Of a stretch of 64,000 nucleotides of DNA, positions 730-60,342 are shown in pieces. The notes under the pieces are model-generated. The model had not been told where the DNA came from, did not search any database, and saw nothing but the letters and a program-made list of their open reading frames with translations. Source of the DNA: Candidatus Woesearchaeota archaeon (GTDB lineage: Archaea > Nanobdellota > Nanobdellia > Woesearchaeales > UBA11576); the NCBI GenBank assembly GCA_043819495.1, contig JBDRET010000047.1:20065-84064 (forward strand), written 5' to 3'. Position 1 is the stretch's first letter; each line of letters starts with the position of its first letter. The position numbers and the translations under genes were made by a program.

Positions 730-943
730 GCACCCGTAGCGCAGCCTGGATACTTACGCCAGCATATAACTGCGTGGCCAAACAGCGCGAAACTCTTTAG
801 GGAACTATTGAGTGTGCAGCTGCCTCCTATTTCAAAGCAGGGCTTTGTAATCCTTCAAAAGCTCCGCTTTAGAAGTAAGCAGTAGGTCGGGAGTTCGAAA
901 TGCGAGCGACAATGGCGTTTGCACAAAATTCTCCCCGGGTGCG
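730..943 (+). tRNA. tRNA-Arg(CCU) interrupted by three putative introns (about 753-813, 830-877, 900-929)
   Basis: Hand-folded cloverleaf. Acceptor GCACCCG (730-736) pairs with CGGGTGC (936-942), discriminator G. D-stem GCGC (739-742) pairs with GTGC (814-817); D-loop AGCCTGGATA. Anticodon stem GCTGC (819-823) pairs with GCAGT (879-883); loop CTCCTA..A. Variable AGGTC. T-stem GGGAG (889-893) pairs with CTCCC (931-935); T-loop TTCGAA..T. The exons sum to 75 nt. Confidence 0.6.
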
Positions 944-2064: not shown

Positions 2065-2604
2065 TCATACTTGCGTTTCCTTCTCTGCCATGTGCACTCT
2101 GCCGCCTTGCCACTGTCCTTTGTATTTTGAGGTCTCCCCTTCTATCCTCACGAAGAATATGTGTATTGCTCTTGCGCCCATCTCGACTGTTATGTTTGAC
2201 TTTCCAGCGTTGTAGATGGGGAATATTATCCCCCCTTCATACCCTGGTCCCAACATGCCTGACACGAGCTTCACTCCTGAGCGCCAGTATGTGCTGCGCA
2301 GGAAATATATCCCGAATAGGTCTTTCGGTATCTTAACTTTCTCGATTGTCTTGCCGATGTAATAATCCCCTGGCTTAAGCAGGATAGAGCTTCTCTTATC
2401 ATTATCGAATTTAGCGATGACTTTCGCATCCGGCGTCTTCCTCTCATCAATGCCTATGAATGCATCACCTTCAAGAGCATGTACTTCCCCTAACCTGAGG
2501 TCATATCCTGAATATTCAGGGTTATTCCGTTCTCTTTCACAGAGGTCTTTGACAAGACCTTGCTCTTCGACAAGTCTTTTGATTATGTCTAGTCCTTGTA
2601 TCAT
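2065..2604 (-). CDS. dcd: dCTP deaminase / dUTPase family protein
   Basis: 179 aa. GYDLRLGEV, then PGYEGGIIFPIYNAG, typical of the dCTP deaminase beta-barrel family. Confidence 0.75.
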   Translation of the reverse strand: MIQGLDIIKRLVEEQGLVKDLCERERNNPEYSGYDLRLGEVHALEGDAFIGIDERKTPDAKVIAKFDNDKRSSILLKPGDYYIGKTIEKVKIPKDLFGIYFLRSTYWRSGVKLVSGMLGPGYEGGIIFPIYNAGKSNITVEMGARAIHIFFVRIEGETSKYKGQWQGGRVHMAEKETQV

Positions 2605-2610
2605 GATCCA

Positions 2611-4464
2611 TCACTGATTCAGCTTCTTCAACATTTCCATTATCTTCCTGCCTTCTGCTCTTCCTTTAAGCGCGCCCATGACCTTTCCTATCAATATCTT
2701 GAACTCTATCACGCCGCTCTGTTTGACTATCTTCTTAATCTCTGCCTCAAGCTCTACATCACTCAAAGGCGCATATTTGGAATAATCAACAGGATCACCT
2801 CTGCAGATAGTCAATAATATCTCTTCTACACTATCTTTCGTCAATTTTCCTGTATCAAGCAACCCAAATATCTTCTCGAAATGTGCATCTGAAAGCGCAG
2901 ACACATCGACATTGTACTGTCTCTTGAGATTCTTAGGAGCAGATATCATTGTCTCTGCGATGAATGCTGGCTTGACATTGCCAAACCGTTCAGTGAAGTC
3001 CTCAAACACCTCATGCTTGCCTGACTTGGATAGGTCCCGTGCAAGATCCTCTGCCAGATTATGTTTCTCTTTGAACCTGTCTTTCTTCTCAGTCAACAGT
3101 TCAGGCAATTCAATCCCGGAAACATCAGGTCTTATCGGTGGTATGTCAGTCTCAGGGTACATGCGAGCTGCCCCAGGCATCGGCCGCATGTATGACGTTG
3201 TCCCGTCCTGATTTGCTTTGCGTACCTCTCGTGGAACGCCAGAAAGGCAAAGTCGCGCTCTTTCTATGACATGTCCCATGGCAGTCTCTCCCTGTGCCTT
3301 GCCTGATACTATGATTGCGAATCCTTCATCCACTACACCGAGCTTCTTTTTGAGCCCTTGCAATTCAGCACTGCTGAACTTGTACTTCGCAAGGTCCTCA
3401 TCCGAGTGGATTATCCCTCCGATGCCTGCCTTGACTTTTCCATAATCAGAAAGTTCTGTGCCGAGTCTCTTCCCTGGTTGTGTCTCTTTGCCGAGCAATC
3501 CTGCAAATCCGGGTAATGTGAATGCGAGTGCGATATCCCCTTTCTTGATTGCAGCATTGACGAATTTACATTCGCTGTCTTTGAATATCTCTGAGACATC
3601 TGCTGACTTTGATCTATCCAATGCAGGTTTTCTTTTCTCAAGCTCTGCTTTCACAGCAACAAGAGCAAGCTGTCTCCTTGCTTCATTCTCGACAAGCGTA
3701 GGGATCATCTTGAGGTCTTGAGCTCCTTTTATCTCAATTCGCGTACCACCAACTACAGATACATTGACATCCTGCCTTATTGTGCCCAACCCGCGAGCAA
3801 CTTTTCCTGTAGAACGGAGTATCATCCCTATCTTCTCTGCTGCTGCCTTGCATTCTTCTGGAGAATTGATGTCAGGATCAGTCCCTATCTCGATCAATGG
3901 AGTTCCTAACCTATCCAATCGGTACACTACATATCGTCGTCCATCTGCATCGACCCCTTTCTCCATGTCTTTTGCAGCGTCCTCTTCTATGGATATCGTT
4001 GGCACTCCTATCTTCTTCCCTGCAACATCAATCCATCCACCGACTGCGACAAGGGCAGTCCTTTGGAATCCTGATGTATTGGAGCCATTGACCACTGTCT
4101 TTCGCATCACCTGCACCTGGTCCACGATGTCTGCATTCAGCATCTTTGAGACCTGAAGTACAGTGCGCAGTGCCTCTTCATTCATCGGGTGTGGTGGTTC
4201 TTCATCTAATTCCACCAGACAGGTGGTGTCAGAATAAGCTTCATATATGTAATATTCCTGCTTTCCCATCTCGTGCTTTGCAGCGACATCTATTGTTCCG
4301 GTCTCACCTGCAACAGCGCGTAACTCGCGACGTATTTTGATATCTGGCGCATCATCTCTCAATGATGAGGGGCAGTCACAGAATAGCTTACTTGTATCGA
4401 GCCTCTGGTGTATCTCGATGCCGCATTTGAGTCCTATCTTGGAATAGTCAAGCTTGTCTGTCAT
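2611..4464 (-). CDS. gatE: Glutamyl-tRNA(Gln) amidotransferase subunit E
   Basis: 617 aa. N-terminus GLKCGIEIHQRLDTSKLFCDCPS. Archaea-specific GatE, adjacent to gatD. Confidence 0.92.
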   Translation of the reverse strand: MTDKLDYSKIGLKCGIEIHQRLDTSKLFCDCPSSLRDDAPDIKIRRELRAVAGETGTIDVAAKHEMGKQEYYIYEAYSDTTCLVELDEEPPHPMNEEALRTVLQVSKMLNADIVDQVQVMRKTVVNGSNTSGFQRTALVAVGGWIDVAGKKIGVPTISIEEDAAKDMEKGVDADGRRYVVYRLDRLGTPLIEIGTDPDINSPEECKAAAEKIGMILRSTGKVARGLGTIRQDVNVSVVGGTRIEIKGAQDLKMIPTLVENEARRQLALVAVKAELEKRKPALDRSKSADVSEIFKDSECKFVNAAIKKGDIALAFTLPGFAGLLGKETQPGKRLGTELSDYGKVKAGIGGIIHSDEDLAKYKFSSAELQGLKKKLGVVDEGFAIIVSGKAQGETAMGHVIERARLCLSGVPREVRKANQDGTTSYMRPMPGAARMYPETDIPPIRPDVSGIELPELLTEKKDRFKEKHNLAEDLARDLSKSGKHEVFEDFTERFGNVKPAFIAETMISAPKNLKRQYNVDVSALSDAHFEKIFGLLDTGKLTKDSVEEILLTICRGDPVDYSKYAPLSDVELEAEIKKIVKQSGVIEFKILIGKVMGALKGRAEGRKIMEMLKKLNQ

Positions 4465-5773: not shown

Positions 5774-8053
5774 TCACATGAAGTAACTGGGCCTGGAATC
5801 TTTCATCTCATTGCCCCTTGCTTTTGTGAACTGTTCTTTCAGTGATTTATATGAATCTTCTATCTCTTTTGTTATGGACGGCCGTACCCTTTCAAATGCT
5901 TTATCAAAGTCTTTCTTTGTGACTTCTTTTGCATCCATGTTCTTCCTTAGGGCTACGATTGCTGCTTCCCTGCATATGCTTTCTATGTCCGCACCAGCAT
6001 ACCCTTCTGTCTTCTTTGCGAGCTCTTTGATGTCGACATCTGGTGCCAGTGGCATATTTTTTGAATGTATCATGAATATCTTCTCGCGTGATGCCTCTCC
6101 AGGAGAGCCGACCATTATTATCCTGTCAAACCTTCCCGGCCTGAGTAGTGCTGTATCGACTATATCTGGCCTGTTGGTCGCTCCGATGATCACGACATTG
6201 TGCAGCTCTTCAAGACCGTCGATCTCAGTCAATAGTTGGTTCACGACCCTCTCACTTACCCTGTTGTCTCCGCTTGCCCCTCTTCTTGGTGCGAGCGCAT
6301 CTATCTCGTCGAAGAATATGATCGATGGTGATGTCTGTCTTGCTTTCTGGAATATCTTCCTGACTGCTTTCTCTGACTCGCCCACCCATTTTGATAATAG
6401 TTCAGGTCCTTTCACGAGTATGAAGTTTGATTCGGACTCATTGGCGACTGCTTTTGCAAGGAGTGTCTTTCCTGTGCCTGGTGGTCCGTACATGAGTATC
6501 CCTTTTGGTGGTGTCACTCCCATCCTGATGAACACTTCAGGGTGTTTGAGCGGCCACTCTACTGCTTCTCCAAGATCCTGTTTGACGTCTTCAAGTCCGC
6601 CTACATCATCCCAGCTGATGTTCGGTATCTCTACAAGTACTTCTCTCATGGCACTTGGCCTGACGACCTTGAGCGCTTCCCAGAAATCTTTCTGTGATAT
6701 CCTGAGTTTCTCAAGTGTTTCTTTTGGTATCGCTTCCTCTTTCTCAAGCTGGAGTTCTGGAAGGACTTTCCGTAGTACTATCATCGCTGCCTCTTTTGCA
6801 AGGGATGAGAGGTCTGCACCTACAAATCCGTGAGTGACTGCTGCGAGTTCCTTGAGTTCGACATCTTCTGTCATCGGCATGTTCCTTGTGTGGATCTTGA
6901 GTATGTCGAGGCGTCCTGCCTTGTCCGGGACTCCTATCTCTATCTCCCGATCAAACCTTCCGCCTCTTCTGAGTGCAGGGTCAAGTAGGTGCGGTACATT
7001 TGATGCTGCTATGACGACGACTCTTCCACGTGACTGCAGGCCGTCCATGAGTGCGAGCATCTGGGCGACAACCCTCTTCTCGACCTCGCCTTTGGTCTCC
7101 TCTCTCTTTGTGGCTATTGCGTCTATCTCGTCTATGAATATGATGCTTGGTGCGCTCTTCTCTGCTTCCTCGAATTTCTTCCTGAGGTTCTCTTCGCTCT
7201 GGCCATAGTATTTCGACATTATCTCTGGGCCGTTGATCAGGAAGAAGTTGGAATTGGTCTCATTGGCGACTGCTTTTGCAAGGAGTGTCTTTCCTGTGCC
7301 TGGTGGTCCATGCAGCAGGACTCCTTTTGGTGCATCGATGCCCAGTCTCTCGAATATCTCTGGATGCTTGAGCGGGAGCTCTACCATCTCCCTGACTTTC
7401 TTTATCTCATCCCGCAGTCCGCCGATGTCTTCATAAGTGACTTCGAATGTCTTCTCTTCCTCTTCCTTGAGCTCAGATGCTTCAGGATTGAAGACTACTT
7501 CTGTCGTGTTTGATATCAGGACTGCTTCCTTTGGGGTGGTGTCTGCGACAACGAACTTTATGTCGCCGAGGCCAAAACCCATCATGCTTTCATCAAGTAT
7601 TGAGAATATGTCTTCGAATGGGCTCTCGCTCATCGTCCTTCTGCGCCTTTTTGTTCCGCCCAGGGATACGATATCTCCCTTGACGACTGCTCTCCCTAGA
7701 AGTCCTTGCTGGAAAAGCTCTGGTGGCGCCCGTATCATTATCCCTTTTCTTGCAGGTGCGACAATGACTTTCTTTGCAGGTTTTACCTCTGCTTTCCTGA
7801 CCTTGACGATCTCGCCTATGCCTGTCTTGGCATTCCTTCTTATGATGCCGTCCATCCGTATTATGTTGAGGCCTATATCTCCAGGGTATGCCCTGTCGAC
7901 TATGCCGACAGTCTTCCTTTCGCCCTCTATCTCGACGATGTCTCCGCTCCTGACCCCTATCTGGTGCATCAGGCCGGAATCTATCCTGACTATGCCTTTA
8001 TTGACATCGTCCTGGATGGCTTCTGCGACTTTCAGGCTTATCTCGGATGTCAT
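5774..8053 (-). CDS. cdc48: Cdc48/VCP-type AAA+ ATPase (two AAA domains)
   Basis: 759 aa. Two [17 protein letters not shown] Walker A motifs, two DEID Walker B motifs, N-terminal double-psi-barrel-like region. Confidence 0.93.
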
Positions 8054-9330: not shown

Positions 9331-9360
9331 GTTATTTTCTATATTTTTCTTATCTTAGCA

Positions 9361-9468
9361 CTTGTGCCGATGCCACCTAGCGAGCATATATGATAGAAGC
9401 GATAACATATGCAGTAGGGCGTAATGAATCAAATTGATTGATCCTTGCGAGCGTGGCATTGGCACAAG
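9361..9468 (+). ncRNA. tRNA-like structured RNA, family copy A (three-way junction)
   Basis: 15-bp closing helix CTTGTGCCGATGCCA / TGGCATTGGCACAAG. Junction strands CCTAGCGAGC (9376-9385), GCAGTAGGGC (9411-9420) and TTGCGAGCG. Inner hairpin GCATAT/ATATGC. AT-rich TATA-like tract 13-30 nt upstream. Strand inferred from the upstream TATA-like tract and homology to the tRNA-Arg gene. Confidence 0.55.
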
Positions 9469-9543
9469 CTCGCAAGGTTGTATTGACGCAGGGGATGCTT
9501 CCTGACCATTAACCTTTTAAATCTCAACCCTTCTCTTGACTGT

Positions 9544-10399: not shown

Positions 10400-11620
10400 A
10401 TGGGATATATTAACTTTCAACGCCTGATGGTTCATATGCAAGATAGGAGTAATTTATCTAGATTGATTGAATCGAATCTTATTAATCATGCTGATTTACC
10501 GTCGACATTAATGGTTGAGATCAAAGACAGATTTAGAAAGAGATTGTTTGATGGATTATCTGTTTACAAACTTAATAGTATATTTCCAAAGCATTCAGTA
10601 TCTAGTTTCAAGAATTACAAGAGAGGTGCTTTTATTCCTGTATGTTTATTTGAAGAGTTAGTAAGATTAAAAAATATCGATATTGAGGAGGTGAACAGAG
10701 GCATACTTAAAGTCAAAAAAAGGCTTTGCGGGCTGCCCATAAAAATAAGTCTGCCTATTTGTTGTTCAGAGCAACTCGCTGAACTTGTTGGACATACATT
10801 TGGAGATGGACACATATCTGAAGGAGGCAGGTTTGTCTATGTTAACACGTCTGGAAGGCTGATTGAAAAGGTAAGACGCTTGGTATGCTATGTGTTCGGG
10901 GATTCAATATGGTGCAACTACCGAAAAAGAAGTGACGGATCTTTTTCTTTGCATTACCCTTCGGCAATAGGGGAACTTCTGGCGGGATTAGGTTGCATTA
11001 AGGGTAATAAGTTTAAACAGGTATTCGATGTTCCTGATTGGATCAAATCAGGAAGTCTGAACTTTAAAGCAGCATTTGTTCGTGCATTATTTGATGATGA
11101 AGGTTCCGTCAGTAATTCTAGAATTGCTATCAACATGGCGAAACAAGAATCTCTTGAATCGGGTCTAAGAACTTTCTTCAATTCTATTATCAGTATCTTG
11201 AACGATTTGAGAATTAGACCGGGAAATGTCGTTGTATGTGCTAGAAGGCAGAATAAGAATGGTGCTAGAGCAGTAGGATTACTTTTTGTTATATGTGGTC
11301 TAGTAGAACTCAAGAATTTTTCAGAGAATGTTGGATTTGTACATCCTTTAAAAAGAGAGAGGTTACAAAACTTGGTGACCTCTTTTATACAGCCTAATTA
11401 TCATGATGGTGAAGCGCGAACCATCATCTTAGATGAAATTCGAGGTTTAATGTCTACTAAAGAAATATGCGAAGTGATTGACAGATGTATGAAAACAACA
11501 AGGTATCACCTGAAACTGCTGGAAAAAGAAGGTAAGATTAAAAAAGTAGTGGCTCACAAGAGCAGATGGTTATGGCAATTAAGCGACCAATCAAAAGAAC
11601 GAAGTACTTCTCTCACTTAA
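10400..11620 (+). CDS. Free-standing LAGLIDADG homing-endonuclease-like protein with flanking HTH/wHTH regions
   Basis: 406 aa. Two LAGLIDADG blocks (LAELVGHTFGDGHIS and FVRALFDDEGSVS). C-terminal wHTH-like TRYHLKLLEKEGKIKK. Visibly more AT-rich than its neighbours. Confidence 0.7.
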   Translation: MGYINFQRLMVHMQDRSNLSRLIESNLINHADLPSTLMVEIKDRFRKRLFDGLSVYKLNSIFPKHSVSSFKNYKRGAFIPVCLFEELVRLKNIDIEEVNRGILKVKKRLCGLPIKISLPICCSEQLAELVGHTFGDGHISEGGRFVYVNTSGRLIEKVRRLVCYVFGDSIWCNYRKRSDGSFSLHYPSAIGELLAGLGCIKGNKFKQVFDVPDWIKSGSLNFKAAFVRALFDDEGSVSNSRIAINMAKQESLESGLRTFFNSIISILNDLRIRPGNVVVCARRQNKNGARAVGLLFVICGLVELKNFSENVGFVHPLKRERLQNLVTSFIQPNYHDGEARTIILDEIRGLMSTKEICEVIDRCMKTTRYHLKLLEKEGKIKKVVAHKSRWLWQLSDQSKERSTSLT

Positions 11621-16299: not shown

Positions 16300-16433
16300 A
16301 TATTACACAAAAACTTCTATCATATATAAAAATATCGGAAATATTGTGTAAAAATTAATAAAAAGTTTTAAATAAAGGTTCTAATATTGTAATCACTAAT
16401 AAGTAACGATTATGTGGCGAATTAAGATGGGAT

Positions 16434-21033: not shown

Positions 21034-21145
21034 CAATGCGATTGACGCTGCCTAGCGAGCTTATTATGACCTGTTAGATGATGATTGCAGTAGGGCAAAA
21101 AGTAGCAGTATTTTCATCCATGCGAGCGCTGCGTCAATCGCCTTG
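21034..21145 (+). ncRNA. tRNA-like structured RNA, family copy B
   Basis: 11-bp closing helix GCGATTGACGC (21038-21048) / GCGTCAATCGC (21131-21141). Junction strands identical to copy A: CCTAGCGAGC (21051-21060), GCAGTAGGGC (21087-21096), ATGCGAGCG (21120-21128). CATTATTCTTATT lies about 25 nt upstream and an oligo-T tract follows. Confidence 0.55.
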
Positions 21146-21467
21146 ATGTCTTTTTTATCTTTTATCCTGCCTACCACAAAAACCCGAAAAGTCAAAAGCG
21201 TGCTTTTGACAACACAGTTCCACCGGCAAGTAAGATTGTCGTAATTATGCCGGGGGAAGTGTCTTTTTTAACTGCTATCCGAAAGTGAACGTTTTAAAAC
21301 CCCGTCTGAAATGCCTTGAAACTGCTGAATTCGAATACTTCAACCCATATGACTCCTGATGAAAAGCTTTATATACCAAAACTTTTTCTATCATAGTTAG
21401 CTATTTGTGGTTGTGGTTTTACAAAAGGCCTTTGATTTTTTTATTTTTTTTTATCTAGGTTTATACA

Positions 21468-49328: not shown

Positions 49329-49441
49329 AGCGGGGTAGGGCAGCCAGGAGTGCCCGAAGGGCTCATAACGCAAAGGTTCCCTTTCCGGAACCTCCTGCGG
49401 AGGTAACCCTTAGGTCGATGGTTCAAATCCATCCCCCGCTA
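49329..49441 (+). tRNA. Initiator tRNA-Met(CAU) with a 38-nt canonical intron (49368-49405)
   Basis: A1:U72 acceptor AGCGGGG/CCCCGCT. D-arm GGGC-AGCCAGGAGT-GCCC. Anticodon stem AAGGG/CCCTT with three G:C pairs, loop CTCATA..A. T-arm GATGG TTCAAAT CCATC. Confidence 0.85.
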
Positions 49442-60184: not shown

Positions 60185-60342
60185 AGGGTCAAGACCGCCT
60201 AGCGAACGTTGGACTGATAAGCGAAAACTATCGCAGTTGGCCCAAGCTCTGCTTGGGAGATTACGAACCAAAGGTTCGAAATGGGCAAACAGAAGAGAGT
60301 CCAGAAGCGATGTCATAAAATTATTGGTAAGTACTTGACCCT
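60185..60342 (+). ncRNA. tRNA-like structured RNA, family copy C (enlarged second arm)
   Basis: 9-bp closing helix AGGGTCAAG/CTTGACCCT. CCTAGCGAAC and GCAGTTGGCC junction strands. Loop CTGATAAGCGAAAAC resembles TGATAGAAGCGATAAC in copy A. Internal helices TGGACT/AGTCCA, CCCAAGC/GCTTGGG, CGAACC/GGTTCG. Confidence 0.45.

Follow-up and report, generated by a model that had tools for sequence, protein, structure and literature searches.

What are the two copies of a structured sequence that lie at 9361-9468 (copy A) and 21034-21145 (copy B) on the plus strand of a 64,000-nucleotide (nt) stretch of DNA from a Candidatus Woesearchaeota archaeon (contig JBDRET010000047.1)? An earlier reading of this whole stretch, hereafter the window, had described the two copies as an RNA family and offered three explanations for them: a tRNA-derived repeat resembling short interspersed nuclear elements (SINEs), a relative of mobile introns or a new small RNA class. 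We found that A, B and, more distantly, a third copy (C) belong to a dispersed and hitherto undescribed family that is so far confined to Woesearchaeota-type DPANN archaea. Instead of a three-way junction, its architecture comprises a long stem, a CUA bulge, a helix with tandem G·A pairs and an A-rich loop of some 60 nt. The element may well be a small, dispersed and structured non-coding RNA read from the plus strand.

A covariance model run on the window recognized exactly A, B and the 5' half only of copy C (20.6 bits; expectation value, E = 0.0035). The elements are laid out as follows, with P1 and P2 denoting the helices and V1 and V2 the two linkers.

9361-9468 (+): copy A, model score 79.1 bits
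9361-9375 (+): copy A, 5' strand of P1 (CTTGTGCCGATGCCA), pairing with 9454-9468; the equivalent family columns covary
9376-9385 (+): copy A, CCTAGCGAGC, invariant in a 34-sequence alignment, its pairing taken from RNAalifold and compensatory variants
9376-9379 (+): copy A, C9376 as the base closing P1, then C9377-T-A9379 as a 3-nt bulge
9380-9385 (+): copy A, 5' strand of P2 (G9380-C9385), with G9382 and A9383 in the tandem G·A pairs
9386-9410 (+): copy A, V1, an A-rich linker of 25 nt and constrained length; the hairpin proposed here is not conserved
9411-9420 (+): copy A, central decamer GCAGTAGGGC (GCAGTTGGGC in most family members), single-stranded in the consensus fold
9421-9446 (+): copy A, V2, an A-rich linker of 26 nt; AGCAG-type motifs are enriched in V1 and V2
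9447-9453 (+): copy A, GCGAGCG, the 3' strand of P2 plus the G that partners C9376, from the alignment, RNAalifold and covariation
9454-9468 (+): copy A, 3' strand of P1 (TGGCATTGGCACAAG), complementary to 9361-9375
21034-21145 (+): copy B, model score 78.9 bits
21034-21050 (+): copy B, 5' strand of P1 (CAATGCGATTGACGCTG), 15 of its 17 positions pairing with 21129-21145
21051-21128 (+): copy B, core, comprising CCTAGCGAGC (21051-21060), V1 (21061-21086), GCAGTAGGGC (21087-21096), V2 (21097-21121) and GCGAGCG (21122-21128)
21129-21145 (+): copy B, 3' strand of P1, then a six-T run at 21151-21156
About 60186-60341 (+): copy C, a long divergent variant with the P1 5' strand (60186-60197), CCTAGCGAAC (60198-60207), GCAGTTGGCC (60233-60242), extra hairpins (60241-60257 and 60264-60278), a distal P1 3' strand (60334-60341) and a degenerate 3' GCGAGCG block

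Consistent with the sequence-only reading, CCTAGCGAGC, GCAGTAGGGC and (T/A)TGCGAGCG follow one another in the same order in A and B with equal spacing (25-26 nt each), and the terminal helices of the two copies are unrelated in sequence and complementary within each copy (15-16 base pairs (bp) in A; 11 contiguous bp in B). Copy C folds more stably than expected (z = -3.8), and its insert is also present in another member of the family, at locus L005. A search with Rfam 15 returned two tRNAs only in the window at the gathering threshold and nothing relevant on A, B or C at E <= 10.

We then asked how widely such elements occur. The pattern CCTAGCGARC-N18-34-GCAGTWGG, scanned against one genome per species, matched at least 110 loci. 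Among the matches listed, about half were bacterial with random spacing and were taken as chance; the other half all had a spacing of 25-28 nt and came from Woesearchaeota or Nanoarchaeota metagenome-assembled genomes (MAGs) and from two MAGs labelled Methanosarcinales. A covariance model (R1) built from 34 of the archaeal sequences found at least 58 members, each about 95-128 nt long, in seven Woesearchaeota-type MAGs (JABMQF, JAHWIS, CAZLYC, JAHJSS, CAZNGE, JAUVBP and JAFGJH). Copy numbers are lower bounds: at least 23 in JABMQF (bin.595), at least 14 in JAHWIS and at least 9 in CAZLYC. Further copies thus exist in related genomes, and the status of A and B as members of a family holds. All 64 pattern matches in viral contigs were rejected by the covariance model, leaving no viral members. 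A metagenome scan with an overly loose pattern gave 120 matches, all apparently chance, mostly in GC-rich contigs and without the A-rich linkers; 15 of these also start CC..GCGAGC, and all 15 look unrelated. No description of the family emerged from full-text searches of the literature on its motifs and on DPANN repeats.

The two "uncultured Methanosarcinales archaeon" MAGs that carry the family are represented by L177 (CAZLYC010000004.1) and L079 (CAZNGE010000002.1), whose TatD orthologs are 74% and 59% identical to the TatD of the window. The latter protein is itself 100% identical to an NCBI entry named Candidatus Woesearchaeota; exact-protein look-ups of the proteins encoded in the window gave no record. 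Because these MAGs share the gene order of the window or have a Woesearchaeota-like TatD on the same contig, their Methanosarcinales label is probably wrong. The family could serve as a practical taxonomic marker in such cases, and it is a source of false 'tRNA-like' calls.

The stem gives strong evidence of a common fold. RNAalifold and pair counting gave two coaxial helices, P1 and P2. Across family members, P1 has a mean of 17 paired positions (range 8-22), and P1 and P2 together are paired in 92.4% of cells, compared with 77.7% in column shuffles. The covariation score of the two helices was 0.435 against 0.169 in shuffled alignments, a value reached by none of 500 shuffles, and pairing fell to 14-60% when partners were slid against each other. 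The compensatory change that had been noted between the closing helices of A and B therefore extends across 58 members, far above controls. P1 ends in an invariant C-G pair, which is followed by the 3-nt bulge; the bulge is CUA in 55 of 58 members, with CAA, CUU and CCU as rare variants. P2 pairs 5'-GCGAGC-3' with 5'-GCGAGC-3' (G-C, C-G, G·A, A·G, G-C and C-G) and is 6-7 bp long, with frequent extension by a U-A or A-U pair. Its tandem G·A and A·G positions do not vary in the family, and compensatory changes were seen at its Watson-Crick positions (C-G to U-A at L056:7480; G-C to C-G at L057:3965 and L081:3078).

Pairing in the stem is also strand specific. Read on the plus strand of the element, P1 contains 45 G·U pairs versus 9 A·C mismatches and P2 contains five versus none. 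In the bin.595 copies, changes in P1 run from C-G through U-G to U-A. Copy A has one feature of its own beside P2: directly 3' of it, CTCGCAAGG (9469-9477) is complementary to CCTTGCGAG (9443-9451, the end of V2 and the P2 3' strand), and this pairing, seen only in copy A, would compete with P2.

Beyond P2 the element behaves quite differently. P2 closes an open loop some 60 nt in length, the middle of which is occupied by the decamer GCAGU(U/A)GGGC; in the 34-sequence alignment only position 6 of this decamer varies. The linkers on either side are tightly constrained in length (V1, 25-28 nt; V2, 24-27 nt) and are about 44% A (43% in V1). In each of them an AGCAG-type motif tends to recur at a constant position. 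CAG reaches 2.9 times its expected frequency, AGC and GCA about 1.9 times theirs; any period-3 or ARN-repeat signal in the linkers was negligible. The sequence-only reading had placed two variable hairpins here, separated by the conserved blocks, and had drawn a three-way junction from them. Such a junction requires two conserved hairpins, and we rejected it: most V1 and V2 sequences have a minimum free energy of 0, their mean folding z is about 0 relative to shuffles, and the hairpins of copy A, when mapped on the family, pair in 31.0% of cells versus 31.7% in shuffled sequences. Because the linkers are unstructured and the hairpins of A pair no more than shuffles do, the apical part is an open loop. 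A possible pseudoknot, in which the CUA bulge would pair with UAG or UGG in the decamer, involves invariant columns, so that covariation says nothing either way.

The distribution of the copies among close relatives revealed rapid turnover. The genes around A and B (CDC48, two small open reading frames (ORFs), TatD and radical SAM, then ThiF, ThiI and DHH) keep their order in L175 and L177, whose TatD proteins are 84% and 74% identical to that of the window. Both loci lack an element at the A and B sites: the spacer that precedes TatD measures 35-37 nt, compared with 213 nt in the window, and a model search with filters off found no member in L175, L176 or L177. Relative to L175, the window contains an extra block of about 170 nt (approximately 9331-9500), which may be flanked by a 6-bp duplication (CATTGA/CATTAA). 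Copy C is absent from bin.595 (L015), where a small ORF lies at that place. Similarly, copies present in L073 and L074 (JAHWIS) and in L015 (bin.595) are missing from the syntenic sites of the window. In four further relatives (65 kb in total) we found nothing beyond two weak, doubtful matches and, in L181, a decayed relic without P1. At L055, a solo remnant with the order P1-CCTAGCGAGCG-P1' (GCGCCAATGCCG-CCTAGCGAGCG-CGGCAGCAGC; about 4212-4255, minus strand) lies 13 nt after a full copy and looks like the product expected of a deletion between the two GCGAGC repeats. Because relatives lack A, B and C at syntenic loci and the window lacks the copies of its relatives, copies come and go on the time scale on which species diverge, and P1 pairing is maintained in every copy that survives. 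Between the TatD and radical-SAM genes, the window has a free-standing LAGLIDADG-like ORF (406 amino acids; 10400-11620, plus strand); these two genes abut in L177 and L178, so this ORF is also a lineage-specific insertion.

Family members are intergenic. As had been noted for A and B, copies A, B and C lie just 3' of a plus-strand gene, beginning 17-33 nt past a co-oriented stop codon. Across the family, 30 copies point the same way as the upstream gene and 24 the opposite way, 40 point the same way as the downstream gene and 16 the opposite way, and nine are antisense to both neighbours; orientation shows no link to local GC skew (27 of 54). The genes flanking A, B and C have housekeeping functions (TatD, ThiF, ThiI, DHH phosphoesterase, Sua5/YrdC and metallophosphoesterase). 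No protein family recurs next to members, and the long variants share no synteny. The bin.595 copies match one another almost perfectly for about 150-200 nt, a 22-bp P1 included, and are set in unrelated flanks; on their 3' side an A/C-rich unit of about 17 nt (ACCAAGAARTCAACC-like) is present one to three times in tandem, resembling a simple-repeat tail (for example, L067 3300-3394 on the minus strand, L088 and L027). Inverted pairs of members, 2-42 nt apart, occur at L019 (3328-3632), L057 (3965-4190) and L081 (3078-3298); the L057 and L081 pairs each combine one canonical and one clearly divergent member, and the L019 pair combines a long variant with a moderately divergent copy. In the window itself, cumulative GC skew has its minimum at about 6000-8000 and rises steadily from there to the end, a possible sign of a replication origin or of a shift in the strand bias of genes.

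How should these properties be read? A stem that is structured yet free in sequence, strand-specific G·U pairs, invariant G·A pairs, an open loop and an invariant decamer point to a folded single strand under selection. RNA would be the most economical identity for that strand, a judgement to which we give about as much credence as doubt. Several observations weigh against it. A TATA-like box at a fixed distance showed no family-wide enrichment over an opposite-strand control; the AT-rich, TATA-like tracts that had been pointed out upstream of A and B do precede these two copies, and a general promoter signal does not follow from them. The bin.595 copies have no TATA-like box nearby, and an oligo-T run follows only 1 of 18 of them (a distant run, 76 nt away); among the copies examined from outside bin.595, 13 of 28 are followed by one. 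Orientation is tied neither to neighbouring genes nor to GC skew, so neither co-transcription nor a replication-linked mechanism is indicated, and no protein partner was identified. G·T and tandem G·A pairs are also tolerated in single-stranded DNA, so that the strand asymmetry is no proof of RNA, and within-genome homogeneity in bin.595 together with presence or absence at orthologous sites is equally expected of a selfish DNA repeat.

These points lead to the rival that we take most seriously, although we consider it rather unlikely: a DNA-level, non-autonomous mobile hairpin like REP/REPIN, ERIC, BOX, Correia or IS200/605-derived repeats, for which any RNA would be incidental. Here the element would fold as single-stranded DNA, and an enzyme encoded elsewhere would recognize the bulge, the G·A helix and the loop and move or copy it. 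ERIC elements are short intergenic imperfect palindromes present in tens of copies, with conserved sequence and varying positions, and they can fold as RNA hairpins. Our family resembles dispersed intergenic hairpin repeats of the ERIC or REP kind in being multi-copy, intergenic, imperfectly palindromic, conserved in sequence and variable in location; the near-identity of copies within one genome, the empty orthologous sites in close relatives, the adjacent inverted pairs, the indifference of orientation to neighbouring genes, the lack of a family-wide promoter signal and the possible 6-bp duplication at A would all fit. By contrast, the P1 helices of A and B are unrelated within one genome, the reverse of the behaviour of miniature inverted-repeat transposable elements, even though arms are conserved within bin.595. 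Nor do the bin.595 copies show sharp ends or a clear target-site duplication (CATTGA/CATTAA at A is the only candidate, and other filled and empty pairs are too diverged to judge); no transposase-like neighbour recurs, orientation has no bias with respect to GC skew, and the core is far better conserved across genomes than the arms, with P1 pairing kept by compensatory changes. Integron attC sites were rejected: the P1 arms have no GTTRRRY-type core, copies are singletons among housekeeping genes and no neighbouring protein recurs. It is improbable that the element instead acts in cis as a co-transcribed hairpin, that is, as a 3'-end stabilizer, terminator or insulator of the kind that REP and ERIC form in bacterial mRNAs. 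The position of A, B and C just past a stop codon would suit this role, as would the location of many copies within 50 nt of a gene 3' end, the six-T run after B and a copy in L073 that sits within a 20-nt spacer between two co-oriented genes; but the 24 of 54 copies that are antisense to the upstream gene and the nine that are antisense to both neighbours do not, relatives have the same genes without the element, and a stabilizer needs no invariant 60-nt loop with a fixed decamer.

Descent from a tRNA, or kinship with mobile bulge-helix-bulge introns, as the sequence-only reading had proposed, is very unlikely. The ordered blocks that it saw shared between the copies and the tRNA-Arg gene of the window are one-mismatch 10-mers, of which about two per window are expected by chance. 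Resemblance of the 3' block (TGCGAGCG...TGGCnTTnGCACAA) to tRNA-Arg, in its T-loop intron, stood above shuffles for copy A only (2 of 500) and did not for copy B (150 of 500). In the pre-tRNA-Arg of the window, this stretch is a self-contained intron hairpin in which UGCGAGCG is paired with GCGUUUGCA. The bin.595 ortholog has identical exons, and its intron reads UGUUUGUG...GCGCAGGCA, with the hairpin kept by compensatory changes; the GCGAGCG block is gone, and AGCATATAAC of the D-loop intron is entirely absent. Because the ortholog intron has its own covarying hairpin without the GCGAGCG block, we rejected the kinship and regard the shared blocks as coincidental. An intron of the mobile type fares no better in a second test: an archaeal bulge-helix-bulge site needs two 3-nt bulges, one on each strand, flanking a 4-bp helix, and the element has only the 5'-strand bulge. 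The nucleotides of the would-be second bulge, G93 and C94, pair with C26 and G25, and the G25-C94 pair, which would have to open, shows compensatory change; because of this covariation and the single bulge, the structure is not a bulge-helix-bulge. What remains in favour of a tRNA source is that UAGCG...CAGUUGGG resembles the tRNA D-arm consensus and that an additional stretch in the long variants (C and L005), GGUUCGAAAU, is reminiscent of half a T-arm. The GGUUCG of these variants is, however, locked in a perfect 6-bp hairpin, the tRNA model (RF00005) has no match on A, B or C at E <= 10, and ARAGORN reports true tRNAs only, in agreement with the earlier statement that A and B are not functional tRNAs. 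A distant origin from a D-arm, based on the UAGCG...CAGUUGGG resemblance only, would be a long shot. Slightest of all is the prospect that the copies are modification-guide RNAs of C/D-box or H/ACA-like type, with the G·A helix and the decamer as would-be protein-binding sites and the linkers as the parts that would recognize rRNA or tRNA targets by base pairing. The pseudo-twofold plan of terminal G·A motif, fixed spacer, central motif and fixed spacer, with tight spacer lengths, is suggestive of such RNAs, as are the dozens of paralogs per genome and a gene turnover of the sort reported for archaeal C/D small RNA (sRNA) genes. But RUGAUGA occurs in 1 of 58 members, a C box followed in order by a D box occurs in none, and the spacers measure 24-28 nt, not 12 nt. 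Nor is the stem a kink-turn, because two Watson-Crick pairs (G-C and C-G) stand between the CUA bulge and the G·A pairs in every member. H/ACA sRNAs were rejected on the grounds that the loop is unstructured, leaving neither upper stem nor pocket, and that no conserved ACA follows P1. The linkers are common to the copies of one genome, not diverse, and show no excess complementarity to same-genome DNA or to the tRNAs of the window; a 14-nt antisense match of the copy A V1 at window position 16313, in an AT-rich promoter region, was taken as chance. Small nucleolar RNA models gave sub-threshold matches only (E of about 2-6), and the 5S rRNA model (RF00001) gave no match on A, B or C at E <= 10; a genuine 5S gene (73.6 bits) adjoins a family member in L056.

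The tRNA genes of these genomes deserve a separate remark. The tRNA-Arg gene of the window (730-943, plus strand) has several non-canonical introns, in the D-loop, the T-loop and elsewhere, and was missed by both ARAGORN and Rfam; its bin.595 ortholog (L062, about 2215-2480, minus strand) has a shorter D-loop intron and conserves the T-loop intron hairpin. Another tRNA in the window (49329-49441, plus strand) has a 40-nt intron, and the syntenic gene in JAHWIS (L073, 3238-3312, minus strand) is an intron-less 75-nt tRNA-Met. ARAGORN found one tRNA in 51 archaeal loci (about 340 kb), and an Rfam scan of 130 kb of these loci found one tRNA and one 5S gene. This yield is below expectation for genomes of about 1 Mb, and it is possible that many tRNA genes are hidden by non-canonical introns.

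Returning to the small RNA that we favour, we can suggest how such an element might work. P1 would protect its ends, and the CUA bulge and G·A helix, together with the GCAG-rich loop, would offer a conserved cellular protein or complex a constant docking surface. Rather than serving as diverse guides, the copies would be redundant with one another. The sequences agree better with a redundant protein-binding RNA than with a guide RNA, and a guide role appears unlikely because linkers are common within a genome, excess complementarity is absent and C/D boxes are lacking. Intergenic DNA would receive new copies by insertion or duplication, and old copies would decay, which would explain why copies stand at different loci in close relatives. 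Of the explanations that had been offered at the outset, a new small RNA class is thus supported by the many members, the covariation and the absence of an Rfam match, and the relation to mobile introns fails; a SINE-like repeat fits the presence and absence data in so far as it spreads, and no mechanism for its spread was found. We tentatively propose, as a possibility somewhat further from hand, a DPANN- or Woesearchaeota-specific class of ribonucleoprotein (RNP) RNA in which the bulged G·A stem presents the GCAG-rich, A-rich loop to a dedicated protein and whose genes multiply and relocate.

DPANN genomes, at about 1 Mb, are tiny and presumably lose DNA that is not essential. Several Woesearchaeota species nevertheless retain dozens of copies of this element, whose stem covaries and whose core does not change from one species to another. 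This suggests either a useful RNA with an unrecognized protein partner or a mobile element that conserves structure and apical loop while leaving its arms free. To our knowledge, no such element has been described in Archaea, and either outcome would give a handle on the RNA biology and genome dynamics of an uncultivated lineage.

Among known systems, the bacterial ERIC/IRU, REP/BIME, BOX and Correia/NEMIS repeats are similar in being intergenic imperfect palindromes of about 100-150 nt, present in tens of copies whose positions vary between relatives. They differ in that their arms or terminal repeats are conserved, whereas the arms of our family vary and covary and its loop, bulge and G·A helix are invariant; moreover, our family is archaeal, has no sequence similarity to these repeats and has yielded neither a target-site duplication nor a cognate transposase. 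Archaeal C/D-box sRNAs are likewise multi-copy, turn over rapidly and combine a tandem G·A motif that joins the ends with a central motif and two fixed spacers. Our family has no C, D, C' or D' boxes and no kink-turn geometry, its spacers are 25 nt long instead of 12 nt and are not diverse within a genome, and its closing helix extends over 10-22 bp. Similar to tRNA-derived SINEs, it consists of small, RNA-shaped repeats that multiply in a genome, with a resemblance to the D-arm (A-box) and, in bin.595, A/C-rich simple-repeat 3' tails; it differs in that the covariance model detects no remnant of a cloverleaf, that neither a reverse transcriptase partner nor a poly-A tail was identified and that no target-site duplications were established, and archaeal promoters are external. 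Among stem-loop RNAs of the Y RNA/YrlA type, Y RNAs number one to four per genome and have a link to Ro/Rsr; their Ro-binding helix sequence was not seen in our family, nor was a TROVE-domain gene, for which no genome-wide test was made. In those RNAs, as in our element, the ends form a long, conserved, bulged stem (there a protein-binding site) that closes a large loop with effector motifs. If the proposed RNP RNA class is real, it would be an archaeal counterpart of a SINE or a Y-RNA-like system, with a partner and a mode of spreading of its own.

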